Of a DNA stretch of 64,000 bases, positions 23,213-30,317 are shown piece after piece. This DNA is from an uncultured Clostridia bacterium (GTDB lineage Bacteria > Bacillota > Clostridia > TANB77 > CAG-508). Below the pieces are notes generated by a model that did not search any database, was not told the DNA's origin, and saw only the letters and a list, made by a program, of their open reading frames with translations. Position 1 is the stretch's first letter. Each line of letters begins with the position of its first letter. The position numbers were made by a program, and so were the translations under genes. The DNA is taken from positions 27,433 to 91,432 of the forward strand of contig CAKPSH010000004.1 of NCBI GenBank assembly GCA_934183325.1, in the 5' to 3' direction.

Positions 23213-24279
23213 GAGAAACAAAGAAAGATGACATAACAGAAGTATTGAAAATAATATCACCAGGAACTCCGATAAGAGAAGGACTAGAAAATATTTTGAA
23301 AGCAAAGACTGGTGGACTTATAGTAATAGGAGATTCGCAAGAAGTATTGGATATTGTAGATGGTGGATTTAATATAAATGAAGAGTACACTCCATCAAGG
23401 CTTTATGAATTAGCAAAAATGGATGGAGCTATAGTTATAAGCAGTGATTTAAAAAAAATATTATATGCAAACACACAATTGATTCCAAATCCTGAAATAG
23501 AAACCAAAGAAACAGGAACAAGACATAGAACTGCAGAAAGAACAGCCAAACAAACTAAACAACTTGTAATAAGCATATCACAGAGAAGAAGTGTCATAAC
23601 TGTATATAAGGGAAATAGTAAGTATGTAATAGAGGATACTTCAAAAGTATTAGAAAAAGCGAACCAAGCATTACAGACAGCGGAAAAATATAAAAAAGTA
23701 TATGATAGAGAAATAAATACTTTAAATGAGTACGAATTTAATGATATTGTAACTCTAGAAAATGTAATAACTGTAATTCAAAGAGCTGAATTAGTTATGA
23801 AAATGGTTGATGAAGTAAGATGTATGGTGTATGAATTGGGAGAAGAAGGAAGACTAGTTGAAATGCAATTGGAAGAGCTGGTTGGAGATTTGGAAAAAGA
23901 AGAAAATTTAATAATAAAGGATTATGTAACAAAAAAGAAAAAAGCAGAAAAAGTTTTAAAAGAAATAATTGATTTGGAAGTTCAAAATCTTTTAAATCCT
24001 ACAACAATAGCAAAAATCTTAGGATACGAGAATTTTGAAAACTTTGATGAAGTTGGAGTATATACGAAAGGATATAGAATATTAAGTAAGGTTCCAAAAA
24101 TGCCATCAAATATAGTAGATAATTTAATAAAATCATTTAAATCCTTCCAACACATATTGATTGCAGATATTCCTGCTTTAGATGAGGTTGAAGGAATAGG
24201 AGAAGTAAGAGCAAGAACGATAAAACAATCATTACAAAGAATGCAAGAACAATTTGTTTTTGATAAAATGTTGTCTTAA
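23209..24279 (+). CDS. disA: DNA integrity scanning protein DisA (diadenylate cyclase)
   Basis: DAC domain with DGAIVI and RHRTAER motifs, C-terminal HhH region; overlaps radA stop as in the Firmicute radA-disA arrangement. Confidence 0.85.
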   Translation: MRETKKDDITEVLKIISPGTPIREGLENILKAKTGGLIVIGDSQEVLDIVDGGFNINEEYTPSRLYELAKMDGAIVISSDLKKILYANTQLIPNPEIETKETGTRHRTAERTAKQTKQLVISISQRRSVITVYKGNSKYVIEDTSKVLEKANQALQTAEKYKKVYDREINTLNEYEFNDIVTLENVITVIQRAELVMKMVDEVRCMVYELGEEGRLVEMQLEELVGDLEKEENLIIKDYVTKKKKAEKVLKEIIDLEVQNLLNPTTIAKILGYENFENFDEVGVYTKGYRILSKVPKMPSNIVDNLIKSFKSFQHILIADIPALDEVEGIGEVRARTIKQSLQRMQEQFVFDKMLS

Positions 24280-24332
24280 TAATAAAACAATGATATAATA
24301 TGAAAAATCAAAAAGATAAAATTTAGAAAGGA

Positions 24333-25148
24333 TTGATAAAAATGAAAAAAGCAGTACTAATTATTGCAATTTTATTAGTAATAGTTTTGATAGGTGGAGT
24401 TAGTTTTGGTATTGTAAAATATGCAACACAAAAAGTAGAAAATCCAGTTGCAACAATAAAATTTAAAGATTATGATGAGGCAGTTGTTGTTGAATTGTAT
24501 CCAGAATATGCTGAAAACACAGTTACAAATTTTATTAAATTAGCAGATAATGGATATTATAATGGATTAAAAATACATAGAGTAGAGGAATCTTTAATAC
24601 AAGGAGGGGATTCAAAAGGAGATGGTTCTGGTTCACCAACACAAGGTGCAATTGATAAAAGTATAGAGTCAGGATCAGATGCAGATAAAGAATATGCAAT
24701 CCCAGGAGAATTTGCAAAAAATGGATATAAAAATAATACACTAAAATTTGAAAGAGGCACAATAGGAATGGCAAGAGGGGACTATACAAATTATGATTCA
24801 AGTTTAACAGATGAGAGTTATAACTCAGCTGGTTCTCAATTTTTTATATTAACAAAAACATCATCAAGCTTAAATGGAAATTATTGTGCATTTGGTAAAG
24901 TTACAAGTGGAATGGATACAGTTGACGCAATTTCAAAAGTTGAAACAGCTGTTGATGAAGAAAAAAATGAAGAAACAGGAGAAACAACACAAAAAGAAAC
25001 AACAAGACCTGCAACAGATGTTATTATTGAAAGCATAACAATAGATTCAAAAGGTGTTGATTATGGAATGCCTACAACAAATGAAGTATTTGATTTTTCA
25101 ACTTGGTATATGTCTAAATATTATTCAAGTAGTTCTTCATCAAACTAA
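24333..25148 (+). CDS. Membrane-anchored cyclophilin-type peptidyl-prolyl cis-trans isomerase
   Basis: Signal anchor then cyclophilin core (FHRV-like KIHRV, GTIGMAR, SQFFI) and a Ser-rich tail. Confidence 0.75.
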   Translation: MIKMKKAVLIIAILLVIVLIGGVSFGIVKYATQKVENPVATIKFKDYDEAVVVELYPEYAENTVTNFIKLADNGYYNGLKIHRVEESLIQGGDSKGDGSGSPTQGAIDKSIESGSDADKEYAIPGEFAKNGYKNNTLKFERGTIGMARGDYTNYDSSLTDESYNSAGSQFFILTKTSSSLNGNYCAFGKVTSGMDTVDAISKVETAVDEEKNEETGETTQKETTRPATDVIIESITIDSKGVDYGMPTTNEVFDFSTWYMSKYYSSSSSSN

Positions 25149-25275
25149 AATAAGCAAAAAAAATTACCACATTATGTGGTAATTTTTTTTCTTTCTAGAA
25201 AAAGAGCAAGTAATATATTGAAAAAAATAGGTCTTAGAATTATAATAAATTTAATATTATTACAGGGAGATAAAA

Positions 25276-26364
25276 ATGTTAAAAAAGATTTATAAATTAG
25301 GAGAAATGACACTAATAAAAATGTATAGAGAACAAGAATATAAGGAACATAAACTAATAGATTTGTTTTGGGAATGCACTTTAACATGTAATGCTAAATG
25401 TAAACATTGTGGAAGCAGTGCTGAGAATAAGAAATATGATGATGAGTTAACAACAGAAGAAATAAAAAATGCATTTAAGCAAATTGCAAATGATATGGAT
25501 GCAAATAAAATTTTGATTAATGTAACAGGAGGAGAACCTTTAATAAGAAAAGATCTGTATGAAGTTATGGAATATGCTACCAATGAATTAGGATTTCATT
25601 GGGGGATGACTACAAACGGAATATTATTAAATGATGAAAATATTAAAAAATTAAAAAAGGCAAATATGGAAACAATTTCAATAAGTATAGATGGAATAGA
25701 AGAAACACATGATAGCTTTAGAGGAGTTCATGGAGCTTATAGAATAATAATTGACAATATAAAAAAATTAAATAAGGCTAATTTTGTGAAACATATTCAA
25801 GTTACAACTGTGTTTCATAAAAAAAATATTGACCAATTAGATGAATTATATTATATAATGAAAGATTTGAAATTAGATTCTTGGAGATTAGTAGCAATGG
25901 ATCCAATAGGAAGGGCAAAAGAGAATAGCAATTTATTATTAGATGGAGAAGAATTAAAAAAAATATTAGATTTTATTAAAACAAAGAAAAATGATAGAAA
26001 ACCGGAAATAACTTATGGATGTTCTAGTTTTCTCGGATTGGATTATGAAAAAGAAGTTAGAAAATATTATTTTTATTGTAAATCAGGAATAAATGTAGCA
26101 AGTATATTATATAATGGGGATTTATTTGTATGTCCTAATGTTCCAAGAAGAAAAGAATTAATACAAGGAAACATTAAAGTTGACAATTTTAAAGACGTAT
26201 GGGATAATAAATATAAACAATTTAGAAATAAAAATAGAACAAAATGTAGTTCTTGTGAACAATGCGAGCAATGGGAGTATTGCTTAGGCGGTTCTTTTCA
26301 TACTTGGGATTTTAATGAAAATATACAAAATAGATGTGTATATAAAATGATTAATAATAAGTAG
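25276..26364 (+). CDS. Radical SAM protein with C-terminal SPASM domain
   Basis: CNAKCKHC (Cx3Cx2C) cluster, GGEPL motif, and C-terminal CSSCEQCEQWEYCLGGS SPASM-like cysteine array. Confidence 0.7.
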   Translation: MLKKIYKLGEMTLIKMYREQEYKEHKLIDLFWECTLTCNAKCKHCGSSAENKKYDDELTTEEIKNAFKQIANDMDANKILINVTGGEPLIRKDLYEVMEYATNELGFHWGMTTNGILLNDENIKKLKKANMETISISIDGIEETHDSFRGVHGAYRIIIDNIKKLNKANFVKHIQVTTVFHKKNIDQLDELYYIMKDLKLDSWRLVAMDPIGRAKENSNLLLDGEELKKILDFIKTKKNDRKPEITYGCSSFLGLDYEKEVRKYYFYCKSGINVASILYNGDLFVCPNVPRRKELIQGNIKVDNFKDVWDNKYKQFRNKNRTKCSSCEQCEQWEYCLGGSFHTWDFNENIQNRCVYKMINNK

Positions 26365-26373
26365 AGGAAAATT

Positions 26374-26733
26374 ATGAAAGAAGTAATAAATAAGTTAAAA
26401 AAATTTTTATCAAAATTAAAAGGCATAATTGGTGGTATAGGAGTAGGAATATTAGCATTTGCAAATAAAATATATGCGGTTCCTCTTAATATAATAAATC
26501 AAGCAGGAATGATAGAAACTGTTTATGGTATTCCAAGACCAAGTCCAATAAAGGTGATTATTAAAGTATCACAAGTGTTTATTATACCAATAGCCATGTT
26601 AATTGGATTATTAGTTTATTTTAAGAAAAGTAAAAGTAGTAAAAAGAAAAAGATATTAGTAATATTAGGAATTATTATTATAGCTATAGTATTTTACTTT
26701 ATAGTGAATAAAATTATGTATGAGTTATTTTAA
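26374..26733 (+). CDS. Small membrane protein (2-3 TM) downstream of the rSAM gene
   Basis: Hydrophobic segments IIGGIGVGILAF, IIPIAMLIGLLVYF, ILVILGIIIIAIVFYFIV; lysine-rich loop. Confidence 0.4.
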   Translation: MKEVINKLKKFLSKLKGIIGGIGVGILAFANKIYAVPLNIINQAGMIETVYGIPRPSPIKVIIKVSQVFIIPIAMLIGLLVYFKKSKSSKKKKILVILGIIIIAIVFYFIVNKIMYELF

Positions 26734-26782
26734 TAAAAAAGGATTTTGAAAAATATAATTAATTTCAAAATCCTTTTTTATA

Positions 26783-28174
26783 TTAAAAATCACAATTTTT
26801 TGGTGTTCTAGGGAATGGAATAACATCACGTATGTTTTGCATTCCAGTTAAATACATCATCATTCTTTCAAAACCTAATCCAAATCCAGAGTGAACAACA
26901 GAACCATATTTTCTTAAATCCATATACCAATCATAAGTATTTTCATCCATTCCTAGTTCTTTTATTTTTGCAGATAATTTATCGAAATCTTCCTCTCTTT
27001 GACTTCCACCAATTATTTCTCCAATACCAGGAGCAAGTAAATCAGTAGCTGCAACAGTTTTTCCATCAGGATTTTGTTTCATATAAAAAGCTTTAATTTC
27101 AGCAGGATAATCTGTTACGAAAACAGGTTTACCAAATAATTGCTCACAAATATATCTTTCATGTTCTGTTTGTAAATCAACTCCCCAAGAAACTTTATAT
27201 TCAAATTTATCATTAACTTTTTCTAATTCTTTAATAACATCTGTATAAGTGATTCTACCAAAATCAGAATTGATAACATTGTGTAATCTATCCAATAAGG
27301 TATTATCAATGAATTTATTAAAGAATTCCATTTCTTCAGGACATTCATTTAATACATAAGTAATTATATATTTTATCATATCTTCTGCTAAATCCATATC
27401 ATCTTTTAAATCAGCAAAACAGATTTCAGGTTCAATCATCCAAAATTCTGCAGCATGTTTAACGGTATTTGAATTTTCAGCTCTAAAAGTAGGACCAAAA
27501 GTATATACATTTCTAAAAGATGTAGCAAATGCTTCTGCATTTAATTGACCGCTAACAGTCAAATGAGCAGGTTTACCAAAGAAATCTTTGGAATAATCAA
27601 CTTTTCCATCATCAGTCATAGGAACATTAGCTAAATCAAAAGAATTTACATTAAACATTTCTCCTGCACCTTCAGCATCGCTAGATGTAATAAGTGGGGT
27701 ATGAACATATACAAATCCTCTTTCTTGAAAAAATTTGTGTATTGCAAAAGATAATACACTTCTAACTCTAAAAACAGCACTAAAAGTATTTGTACGAGGA
27801 CGTAAGTGAGATACTGTTCTTAAATATTCAAAACTTGTTTTCTTCTTTTGAAGTGGATAATCAAGAGAAGATAAATTTTCAATTGTTATTTCATTAGCTT
27901 TTATTTCAAAAGCTTGTTTTGCTCCTTCTGTTTTTATAAGAGTTCCTGTAACTTTGATAGAAGAACTAATTGATAATTTACATATTTCATTAAAATTAGA
28001 TAAGGTATCCTCAAAAACGATTTGAACATTTTTAAAAAAACTTCCATCATTTAATTCTATAAAACCAAAAGCTTTTGAATTTCGAACTGTTCTAACCCAA
28101 CCTTCTAAAATAACTTGCTTATCAACGTATTCGCTAGTATTACGGTACAAATCTTTAATTGTTAATTTCTTCAT
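26783..28174 (-). CDS. asnS: Asparagine--tRNA ligase
   Basis: N-terminal OB anticodon-binding region ([21 protein letters not shown]), class II motifs (FRAE, GLGFER); 463 aa from ATG 28174 after AGGGATGA RBS. Confidence 0.85.
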
Positions 28175-28313
28175 AAAATCATCCCTTCTATAATATAAGA
28201 TTTCAATATTATATACCAAAAAAGGTTGAAAATTCAATAGATTATACGAAATATATAGAAAAAATGAAAAAAAGATGATATAATACTTGTTATGTAAATT
28301 AGGAGGAGAAGAA

Positions 28314-30317
28314 ATGAGAAAACATATTTCTAACGAAAAAAAATTAAATTTAATTCTGGAGTATATAAATGAAAAAGGAACAAAACCAATTTATAGTTCA
28401 GAATATAAAGGATATTCTGTTGGGGTATATTTAATATATTTAAGAAAATTAGCATTTGATACAAGAGATTTAGATGAAAAAATAGTACAAACAATGATAG
28501 AAAATGGTTTACTAGATAAAAAATGCGATTTTATTGAAGACAAATTATATAGATTAGAAAAATTTTGTAGAAAATATCCACAAATATGGAGAGAAAGAAG
28601 ATATAAAAGCAGAGATGAACTATTCGCAAGTATTCCAGAGGAAAGAGAAAAAGTAGAGCCATTATTAGAGCAAGCAATAAGTGATTACAGATATATTTCA
28701 GTAAGAAAAGATGATGGAAAAATATCTGAAAAAGATATTTTAAGATTAAGAGAAGCTGGAGCTGGATATAAATTTGAAGATGATAAAGTAATAGAAAGTA
28801 TAGTAAAGAAATATGGAATATCAAAAAATGATTTAGCTGTTGTATGTAACAAATATGGAAATATAAAAAATTTCAAAAACGAATATGTAAAAGCATTAAC
28901 AGAAAGAAGACTTAATGAAATACAACAAAATATACCAAAAAATATTTATGAAAGACTTATAAAAGGATTTGATATATCTCAACCAGACTTTATAAAAAGA
29001 AATAACGGAATAGAAAAACTTATAGACGATATTGTAGGAGCTGAAGAAGGAAATATTGTAAATTTAGAACCAATAAGAAAAAAAATAAAGGAAATAATGA
29101 CAAGAGGAGATAGAAAAAAACAATATGAATTAATAAAATTAAAATATGGAATAGAGGATGGAATAGAAAGAAGTAATGCACAAGTAGCAAAAATAATCGG
29201 CATATCTAGTGAAGCAGTTAGACAATCAAAAGAACATACAATAAATGCTTTGAAAAGAACAGAGGTAAAAATTGTATATGAGGAAGAAAAAATAACAGGA
29301 AAAAGAAGAAGTGAATTTATAGAGGAATTCTTTAGAAATTATGATATATTTATGCCAGATGAGTATATAGAAATAGATAAGGCTGTAAGCATGAAATTAG
29401 AAGAGTTATGTATGAAAGAAAATAAAGTTAGAGAGACTTACAAAAGAAAAATAGAAATATATGGAGATATAAAATTATCAAAAACGATGTTAAGAGGATA
29501 TATTGTAGAAAAATTGAATAAAATTGAAATAGATACTATAGAAGAATTAACACAATATTCAGAAGAGGAATTAATAAAAAAATCAAAATTTAGTAAAAGG
29601 ATAATAATACAAATAAAGGAAGCTTTAAAGGAATTTGGACTAGGATTAGGAAAAACTGTAATAAACCACCAAACAGATGAAAATAGAAACAGTGATATAA
29701 AGCAAAGTCAAGACATTACTAATAATACTAGTATAACAATTGCACATAAAAGTAGAAAAATAGAAGTATTAGATTTAAGTCCTTGTTTATATAATATTCT
29801 TAGAAGAAATGGAATAGAAAATATTGAAGATATTGGAGACATATCAGATAAGAAAAATATTTCAAGATTATTATTAATGAAGGGGTTAGGAAGACAATAT
29901 TTAAATGAATTAGTATATAAAATGAACAATATTAGAGAGTTAAATATAGAAAAACAAAAAACAAACAAAGGTAAAAGTGAAACAGAAAAGAATGATAATG
30001 AGGATATAAGAATAGAAGATACAGGAGAACTAAATAAATATACAATATTAAGAAAATTAAATGATAGAGGAATAATTACACTAGGAGATTTGACTAAGTA
30101 CAATGAAGAAGAATTGAAACTTATTGCAAAAATTAATTTTCAAAGCATTGCAAAAATAAAAGTAATGTTAAAAAAATATGGATTACACTTAGAAGAAAGA
30201 AAAGATAAAAATATAGATGCAGAATTAATGCAGGCAATTCAAGAGTTGCGAGATGCATATAAACAAAAAGTACAAAATAGAATACCAGAACACACATCAG
30301 CAGGAGAAGAAAGATAG
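28314..30317 (+). CDS. Large protein with a sigma-70 region-4 HTH plus three RpoA alpha-CTD-like helix-hairpin-helix repeats
   Basis: [41 protein letters not shown] matches sigma region 4.2. Three segments ([32 protein letters not shown]; [46 protein letters not shown]; [46 protein letters not shown]) resemble the alpha-CTD fold seen in rpoA at 57048-57995. Start ATG 28314 after AGGAGGAG. Confidence 0.5.

Follow-up and report, generated by a model that had tools for sequence, protein, structure and literature searches.

Spliceases are radical S-adenosylmethionine (rSAM) enzymes with a SPASM domain that excise tyramine at X-Y-G sites, in which X is naturally Met or Leu and broadly variable. 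To our knowledge, they are the only enzymes that target X-Tyr-Gly. For PlpXY, a tag of about 10 residues within an unrelated protein is enough for recognition, with no need of a leader, and the natural splice-tag sites of PlpA are PIRPLYGLPI and AVAAMYGVVFP. Binary spliceases that work without a Y protein also exist. The ketoamide products are electrophilic warheads that inhibit Ser and Cys proteases. Here, we describe a two-gene operon in a 64,000-nucleotide stretch of DNA (the window) from an uncultured gut Clostridia bacterium (GenBank assembly GCA_934183325.1, contig CAKPSH010000004.1), which encodes a 362-residue rSAM/SPASM enzyme and a 119-residue membrane protein. Because the two families co-occur, the Tyr-Gly motif of the partner is invariant and natural fusions of enzyme and motif exist, we consider that the small protein is very probably the substrate of the enzyme. 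The explanation that we favour, with a modest degree of confidence, is that the gene pair encodes a maturase and its substrate as a self-contained cassette with splicease-like chemistry.

Other described SPASM enzymes differ from the window enzyme in their architecture or their targets. SuiB and CteB have N-terminal domains of the RiPP recognition element (RRE) type, where RiPP stands for ribosomally synthesised and post-translationally modified peptide. SuiB, CteB, SkfB and ChlB act on short leader-bearing precursor peptides at Cys, Lys-Trp or similar targets, and none of the four is known to us to target Tyr-Gly. The anaerobic sulfatase-maturating enzyme anSME (PDB 4K36), which modifies sulfatases, resembles the window enzyme in lacking an RRE domain. 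However, the two share only 17% sequence identity, and the window system has no sulfatase and no C/S-x-P-x-R motif, its target being Tyr-Gly. According to a secondary source, Scott et al. (Chem 2022) screened all rSAM-SPASM proteins of the UniProt reference proteomes for YG-rich neighbours and reported such systems in 189 genera, with 27 pairs confirmed.

The enzyme and its motifs lie at the following positions of the window.
25276..26364, plus strand: rSAM/SPASM enzyme of 362 residues, ATG start, no N-terminal RRE domain (CX3CX2C begins at residue 38).
25387..25410, plus strand: C38-x3-C42-x2-C45 (CNAKCKHC), which binds the radical SAM [4Fe-4S] cluster and does not vary in alignments A2, A3 and A5.
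25528..25539, plus strand: GGEP, the SAM-binding GGE motif, residues 85-88, invariant in A2, A3 and A5.
26020..26337, plus strand: SPASM auxiliary-cluster region, with C249, C268-x12-G281-x4-C286, C327-x2-C330-x5-C336-x5-H342 and C354, located by Pfam and conservation.

A preliminary description of this locus had reported a 362-residue rSAM protein with Cx3Cx2C and GGEP motifs, and both motifs were confirmed in this open reading frame (ORF). The Pfam matches are Radical_SAM (E 1.4e-26, residues 34-191) and SPASM (E 4.1e-09, residues 268-330), and the fold of the enzyme matches that of peptide- and protein-modifying SPASM enzymes. The C-terminal SPASM Cys array that had been described, CSSCEQCEQWEYCLGG, is present at residues 324-339, but its first Cys, C324, varies among the relatives. 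In alignments of these relatives, the conserved auxiliary-cluster residues are C249, C268, C286, C327, C330, C336 and C354, together with an invariant His342, and the fourth Cys of the canonical CX2CX5CX3C is missing from the enzyme. We also observed that the layout of the clade, C-x2-C-x5-C-x5-H (residues 327-342, positions 26254-26301), replaces the canonical SPASM C-x2-C-x5-C-x3-C and occurs likewise in the enzyme of locus L128, described below. The invariant His may stand in for a Cys as ligand, or a coordination site may be left open on one auxiliary cluster. The enzyme is strongly conserved. An exhaustive search of 1.84 billion representative sequences returned 382 enzyme clusters at E ≤ 1e-30. 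The best 120 of the database clusters are 74–99% identical to the enzyme and nearly all are 359–368 residues long, and the names of the close relatives are generic or absent.

The top NCBIfam model for the enzyme is TIGR04133 (rSAM_w_lipo), at 314.1 bits, which is under the curated cut-off of 425. TIGR04133 and TIGR04134 are hypothetical equivalogs of Bacteroidales and Treponema in NCBIfam. Our literature search found no publication on either, and a search for YGPP returned only unrelated nuclear magnetic resonance and peptide papers. Two true TIGR04133 enzymes in annotated plasmid/chromid records, from Parabacteroides distasonis (WP_036633130.1, 607.9 bits) and Treponema saccharophilum (451.4 bits), adjoin a “radical SAM-associated putative lipoprotein” (WP_005853865.1 in P. 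distasonis) that scores 207 and 44 bits, respectively, with TIGR04134 (L125 and L126). A third, unannotated pair in Phocaeicola massiliensis (L128) was assigned by homology and was scored against neither model. All three lipoproteins carry YG[SMT]P just past the lipobox (CEYGSP, CYGMP and CEYGTP, in the contexts GFSCGENGEIPCEYGSPH, LTSCYGMPENY and FTACDSDGPGNELCEYGTPS). Like the TIGR04133 systems, the window enzyme has an rSAM core and a SPASM domain without an RRE and shows the C-x2-C-x5-C-x5-H signature (as seen in L128). It also has an exported neighbour with Y-G-x-P near the mature N-terminus, a feature that was derived here and is not in the curated definition. Unlike them, it reaches 314 bits against a cut-off of 425, is 32% identical to a true member and belongs to the Clostridia. 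Its partner lacks the lipobox, the beta-sandwich domain and any TIGR04134 match, and instead has a signal peptide and two transmembrane (TM) helices. The YG motif and the auxiliary-cluster layout that are common to these loci lead us to place the window system beside TIGR04133/TIGR04134, as a sister branch from the Clostridia whose partner is built differently. Among the NCBI curated families, there is no model for this branch of enzymes or for the partner protein.

The preliminary description of the neighbour as a Cys-free membrane protein of 119 residues was also correct. The features of this protein are listed below.
26374..26733, plus strand: partner protein and putative substrate, 119 residues, no Cys, ATG start, with homologues that adjoin the enzyme in nearly all close loci.
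26374..26478, plus strand: signal-peptide-like N-terminus, residues 1-35, with a K-rich n-region, a hydrophobic core and I-Y-A, from the sequence and alignment A1.
26521..26535, plus strand: V50-Y51-G52-I53-P54, proposed modification site, from conservation in A1 and a logo of 260 sites.
26566..26622, plus strand: predicted TM helix 1, at about residues 65-83, a hydrophobic stretch that holds the invariant G78 (A1).
26623..26652, plus strand: KKSKSSKKKK loop, residues 84-93, conserved in A1 and probably cytoplasmic by the positive-inside rule.
26653..26706, plus strand: predicted TM helix 2, at about residues 94-111, from the sequence and A1.

The order of elements along the protein is a K-rich N-terminus, a hydrophobic stretch, NKIYA, a 30-residue linker, a TM helix, KKSKSSKKKK and a second TM helix. 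In the partner family, the consensus at the position of I-Y-A is K-[VI]-F-A (A1), and cleavage of the signal peptide before V36 is possible. The conserved N-terminal segment could be a leader helix or merely a signal peptide. Alignment A1 comprises 39 small-protein homologues that are 21–50% identical to the window protein. Only Y51 and G78 are invariant in it, and of these two only Y51 lies outside the TM region; conservation of G52 is at least 90%. A profile search yielded 41 further homologues, all of them unnamed and free of Pfam domains, and Y[GA] occurs between residues 21 and 80 in 40 of the 41. The 119-residue protein itself has no TIGR04134 match at E ≤ 0.01 and no lipobox, and Pfam and NCBIfam gave nothing meaningful for it or for nine partners of other types. 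An identical copy was found on 41 contigs, and it stands beside the enzyme wherever the context was read.

We then compared the enzyme loci of other genomes. The preliminary description had called the enzyme stand-alone and suggested analysing its co-occurrence with the 119-residue protein. This analysis does not support a stand-alone enzyme, as the homologues of the partner recur with the enzyme across loci. In 36 loci from species representatives of GTDB, with enzymes 67–81% identical to that of the window, one to three homologous small proteins are encoded upstream and/or downstream, and the remaining neighbour genes vary. Nearly all of these loci are from metagenome-assembled genomes of uncultured Clostridia, several of them from human, ruminant or rabbit gut. 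For example, the 78%-identical enzyme of L001 lies in a different chromosomal neighbourhood, with a 114-residue protein upstream and a 58-residue protein downstream; both have the N-terminus of the window partner and contain LYAPP or LYGPP. A metagenome scan with a seven-sequence alignment of distant relatives added 80 loci (37–77% identity, 24–66% guanine plus cytosine [GC]), which gave a combined set of 116 loci with enzymes 37–81% identical and the same GC range. In 94 of the 116 loci (81%), YG[PVI] occurs in a same-strand ORF within 700 nucleotides of the enzyme. By this position-based count, the density of YG[PVI] is 1.50 per kb near the enzyme, compared with 0.19 and 0.13 per kb in control zones 1200–1900 and 2000–2700 nucleotides from it, where 15 of 88 and 11 of 82 loci had the motif. 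This amounts to an 8- to 11-fold enrichment. The earlier statement that there is no obvious substrate is likewise not supported. The other suggestion of the preliminary description, that the enzyme acts on the membrane protein encoded downstream of it, gains support from the co-occurrence, the invariant Tyr-Gly motif and the natural fusions.

Two observations concern the layout and the limits of this set of loci. In the sub-lineage L004-L008, a sigma factor of the extracytoplasmic function (ECF) type with a C-terminal extension of about 110 residues is encoded directly before the cassette (L004:2366-3205, L008:3812-4645), and the order within the cassette is a DYGV-type small protein, the rSAM enzyme and two further small proteins. 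In Agathobacter rectalis (L127:2522-3676, NZ_CP143948.1), a 31%-identical rSAM/SPASM enzyme with the canonical CX2CX5CX3C is followed by a major facilitator superfamily transporter, and no Tyr-Gly partner was found at this locus. This enzyme was assigned to a different family, and its locus marks the outer boundary of the Tyr-Gly-associated clade.

The partners belong to unrelated architectures. Among them are small signal-peptide proteins with TM helices, lipoproteins in which VYGPP is repeated three to five times, proteins that hold the motif between two zinc ribbons, and soluble proteins with repeats of QLVYGPPQ or QKVYGPAP. What is common to all of them is the consensus Q-x-[LV]-Y-G-[PV]-P. 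In a logo of 260 sites from 134 distinct partner ORFs, the positions are Q at -3; P, T or D at -2; L (81), V (73), M (17), D (14) or A (12) at -1; Y; G; P (103), V (91) or I (31) at +2; and P (128) at +3. In L032 (6089-6331) and L034 (6089-6316), which belong to the close Clostridial clade (70% identity), a short acidic lipoprotein with two sites, ALYGVPP and DLYGVPAP, replaces the two-TM partner and forms a bridge to the TIGR04134-type partners.

In three relatives, the enzyme is naturally fused to an extension that bears the motif: P0141, with AVIYGPPE and a zinc ribbon; P0159, with QTLYGPPP between zinc ribbons; and P0146, with three N-terminal sites (VVYGCATP, RVYGVATP and EVYGTPS). The AlphaFold2 model of the P0141 fusion has a confident core, with a predicted local distance difference test (pLDDT) score of 88 and a predicted template modelling (pTM) score of 0.82. 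Other fusions and variants were observed among further relatives. The sister group P0126, P0131 and P0142 has a C-terminal fusion to a JAB/MPN-like domain (HSHP…S..D), and in others the fusion is to a polytopic membrane domain of M50-like type (HExxH), a GNAT acetyltransferase or a TerY_C metal-binding domain (P0210, P0214, P0239; P0357, P0358; P0413). In L121 (2992-4602) and L122 (265-1923), loci of the JAB/MPN-like group, the ORF that follows terminates in VCYYGCPNSKKA, where Cys residues flank a variant of Tyr-Gly-x-Pro.

These architectures bear on a different role for the small membrane protein, namely that of an accessory (anchor, immunity protein, exporter subunit or regulator), the true substrate being encoded elsewhere or not being a peptide. 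Such a role would be consistent with a TM region that is as conserved as the motif, with its invariant G78 and conserved KKSK loop, and the ECF-type sigma factor before the cassette in L004-L008 would also fit a function in signalling. However, the TM region is dispensable, because the lipoprotein, zinc-ribbon and soluble repeat partners retain only the motif, often in multiple copies, and the 58-residue secreted version of the partner has no TM helix. A motif that is fused to the enzyme itself is also hard to reconcile with an accessory membrane protein. We therefore judge this role to be improbable.

The assignment of the enzyme to families with known functions was examined with hidden Markov models (HMMs). 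After TIGR04133, the next NCBIfam scores are AhbD (171 bits), TIGR04053 (159), MftC (147) and the NirJ types (132–136), followed by TIGR04103 (118.5), PqqE, StsB and PapB (about 100) and the SCIFF maturase (87), all of them far under the respective cut-offs. The preliminary description had proposed a maturase of the SCIFF, sactipeptide or ranthipeptide type. This proposal was abandoned because the scores are low (87–101 bits against cut-offs of 340–625) and the conserved motif of the partner contains Tyr-Gly and not Cys. In detail, the SCIFF maturase (TIGR03974) scored 87 bits against 425, with no Cys-rich ORF of at least 20 residues in the flanks, and the sactipeptide maturases StsB and AlbA (101 bits against 625) and the ranthipeptide maturase PapB (100 bits against 340) were rejected with no Cys-rich precursor in the flanks. 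The absence of a short Cys-rich ORF from the flanks had been stated previously, and we found the same for ORFs of at least 20 residues in the gaps 25149-25275 and 26734-26782 and in ORFs overlapping them. MftC (TIGR03962; 147 bits against 265) was also rejected, and MftA, with its C-terminal GVY, and MftB are not adjacent.

Another explanation is that the enzyme is a housekeeping rSAM protein, for example of AhbD/NirJ heme maturation or of the anSME type, and that its adjacency to the small protein is coincidental. AhbD is indeed the second-best NCBIfam match, the NirJ types score 132–136 bits, and the flanking genes (disA, a peptidyl-prolyl isomerase [PPIase] gene and asnS) are housekeeping genes. 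Against this, the AhbD and NirJ scores are far under their cut-offs of 500–650, and heme and sulfatase genes were not found in the operon or among the neighbours, which are a PPIase and AsnRS. The anSME-like alternative of the preliminary description fares no better, as anSME (TIGR03942, cut-off 349 bits) is absent from the 25 best families of the enzyme (it scores 73 bits on the relative P0141). Furthermore, the chromosomal position of the enzyme varies by genome while the small partner travels with it, and the motif is enriched 8- to 11-fold beside it. A match to a housekeeping rSAM family that would have spoken against a peptide partner was thus looked for by HMM and not found, the family scores being far below the cut-offs, and we regard this explanation as very improbable.

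The chemistry at the Tyr-Gly site can be considered by comparison with the spliceases. In both systems, an enzyme with rSAM and SPASM domains has a co-encoded partner with a conserved X-Y-G in which X is variable, and several sites may occur per substrate. The local contexts are almost the same: P-L-Y-G-L-P in PlpA2, A-M-Y-G-V-V in PlpA3 and T-V-Y-G-I-P in the window protein. We propose tyramine excision because the PlpA sites have the same local context as the logo and because recognition by the tag alone and binary systems are known. In the proposed mechanism, the cytoplasmic enzyme would recognise a short linear motif, with the consensus Q-x-[LV]-Y-G-[PV]-P (E-T-V-Y-G-I-P-R-P in the window), about 15 residues past the signal-peptide-like N-terminus of the co-translated 119-residue protein. 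The Tyr-Gly site would be modified on the nascent protein before Sec export, and the two C-terminal helices would then anchor the exported protein, with the modified segment presumably outside the cell. The 5'-deoxyadenosyl radical would attack Tyr, and the N, C-alpha, C-beta and phenol ring would be removed (-135.07 Da). After tyramine excision at V50-Y51-G52, a ketoamide would remain on a short segment outside the cell, which two TM helices would tether. Because ketoamides are electrophilic inhibitor warheads for Ser and Cys proteases, the product is proposed to be a surface-anchored protease inhibitor. Paralogues have L, V, M, A, D or E directly ahead of the Tyr, and the protease specificities may vary accordingly. 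In contrast to spliceotides, which are released peptides, the putative substrates here have Sec signal peptides or lipoboxes and would stay anchored in the membrane.

Several points weigh against this explanation. With TIGR04103 as a proxy for splicease sequences (the splicease family IPR026482, comprising PlpX/PlpY, PcpX, RhaX/RasX and RcsX, is assumed here to correspond to it), the enzyme reaches 118.5 bits against a cut-off of 725 and is not a member of the family. Its score is no better than those of AhbD (171), TIGR04053 (159) and MftC (147). As the enzyme is outside the PlpX splicease family by sequence, the argument for the chemistry comes from the similarity of the substrate motifs. 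An exported substrate would need to be modified ahead of Sec translocation. About 19% of the loci have no motif within 700 nucleotides; in some cases the contig is short, in others the motif seems to be genuinely absent, and several loci that were counted as motif-less hold the variants LYGLP, LYGMP, IYGAMP or [LV]YASP or sit on truncated contigs. Some partners have Y-A in place of Y-G (LYAPP, LYAVP, [LV]YASP). Finally, in the P0141 model, the YGPP segment (residues 404-428), in a tail without alignment depth, has a pLDDT below 50 and is undocked, so the motif is not placed in the active site. Taking these points together, we rate splicease-like chemistry at the Tyr-Gly site, which is suggested by analogy, as close to an even proposition at best.

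In another explanation, the enzyme-substrate pair and the Tyr-Gly target are the same and the chemistry is different. The candidates are a Tyr-centred cross-link (for example, a three-residue cyclophane of the triceptide kind, between the Tyr ring and the C-beta of the residue that follows Gly), a modification of the Tyr C-beta or C-alpha (hydroxylation or epimerisation) and an MftC-like oxidative reaction. The enzyme is no nearer to the splicease model than it is to other SPASM maturases, and MftC, which attacks Tyr, scores 147 bits compared with 118 for TIGR04103. The residue at +2 is P, V or I at 225 of 260 sites and might thus participate in the reaction, and the C-x2-C-x5-C-x5-H layout without the fourth Cys suggests an unusual auxiliary cluster. 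However, other residues (S, A, T, C, M and L) are found at +2 as well, the sites in TIGR04134 being YGS, YGM and YGT, and the pattern in which Y and G are fixed while -1 varies freely is the one reported for splice sites. The fact that we know of no cross-linking family that targets X-Y-G-P also counts against this explanation, which we rate as less likely than not and as a serious competitor to tyramine excision.

The DNA of the window is chromosomal, with about 26% GC, and carries housekeeping genes that nearly all point in the same direction. From the reading of the sequence and the prediction of terminators and RNA folds, the ORFs of the enzyme and the small protein were assigned to one two-gene operon, because a hairpin brackets the pair at each end and the intergenic gap is only 9 nucleotides. 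The boundaries and signals are as follows.
25156..25190, no strand assigned: terminator-like palindromic hairpin with a 16-bp stem and A/T runs on either side, marking the end of the cyclophilin gene that lies upstream and the 5' limit of the operon.
25218..25246, plus strand: promoter-like TTGAAA-17-TATAAT, with 11 of 12 consensus matches, 30 nucleotides before the start codon.
25265-25269, plus strand: GGGAG, ribosome-binding site of the enzyme gene, from the reading of the sequence.
26733..26781, no strand assigned: bidirectional terminator, a 19-bp hairpin with A and U runs, common to the operon and the convergent asnS, which forms the 3' boundary of the operon.

The promoter was called by its match to the consensus only, and the count of such sites in the region does not exceed the shuffled expectation. 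The hairpin at 26733..26781 has a predicted RNA fold of -19 kcal/mol (z = -6.1), and none of 200 shuffled sequences was equally stable. The start codon of the partner lies 9 nucleotides past the stop codon of the enzyme and in frame with it, and the partner gene has a separate ribosome-binding site, GAGGA. The same in-frame arrangement of the enzyme TAG and the partner ATG, nine bases apart (26362-26376 in the window), was observed in several close loci. Read-through of the stop codon may yield a fusion that resembles the natural P0141, P0159 and P0146, or the spacing may simply be inherited. The operon has no third gene, and we saw in it neither a Nif11/NHLP leader nor a Y protein or RRE. An Rfam scan of 24000-28500 with a permissive threshold found riboswitch or other RNA-element matches at chance level only, and a scan of the whole window found one tRNA and nothing else.

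The flanking genes are disA, the cyclophilin-type PPIase gene and asnS (26783-28237, minus strand). The PPIase (24333-25148) is membrane-anchored, and its C-terminal tail has D-Y-G-M-P at residues 243-247 (25059-25073). The ORFs of at least 30 residues in the window contain only three YG[PVILM]P sites, two of which lie on either side of the rSAM gene, which makes the PPIase a possible second substrate. Downstream of asnS, a K/E-rich ORF of 676 residues (28287-30317) has only faint helix-hairpin-helix matches to RNA_pol_A_CTD and RAD51D_N, taken from the precomputed annotation of identical contigs. This locus differs among strains, with another gene in its place in one contig.

The type of enzyme and the probable motif are known already. 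The membrane-anchored substrates with signal peptides and the link to TIGR04133/TIGR04134 are new to the accessible literature. We found no functional annotation for the wider clade of TIGR04133 and the Clostridial branch (382 clusters). Tentatively, and with less confidence than for the window pair, we suggest that this clade installs a backbone modification at Tyr-Gly-x-Pro of envelope proteins (membrane-anchored proteins and lipoproteins) in gut anaerobes, its native substrates being whole proteins with Sec signal peptides and not leader-bearing RiPP precursors. The products would then be genetically encoded, surface-tethered ketoamide protease inhibitors, or the result of a Tyr-Gly chemistry that has not yet been described. 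If the reaction is tyramine splicing, beta-amino-acid ketoamides would occur beyond secreted peptides, also in envelope-anchored proteins of abundant gut anaerobes, and a possible role would be resistance to host or competitor proteases. If the chemistry differs, Tyr-Gly-x-Pro would define a new post-translational modification. The short recognition motif is also a potential compact tag for protein engineering. The result also offers a first functional hypothesis for the curated and uncharacterised TIGR04133/TIGR04134 pair, and if it is true, many genes of gut metagenomes that are annotated only as “radical SAM protein” or “hypothetical protein” would acquire a function that can be tested and a defined site of modification.

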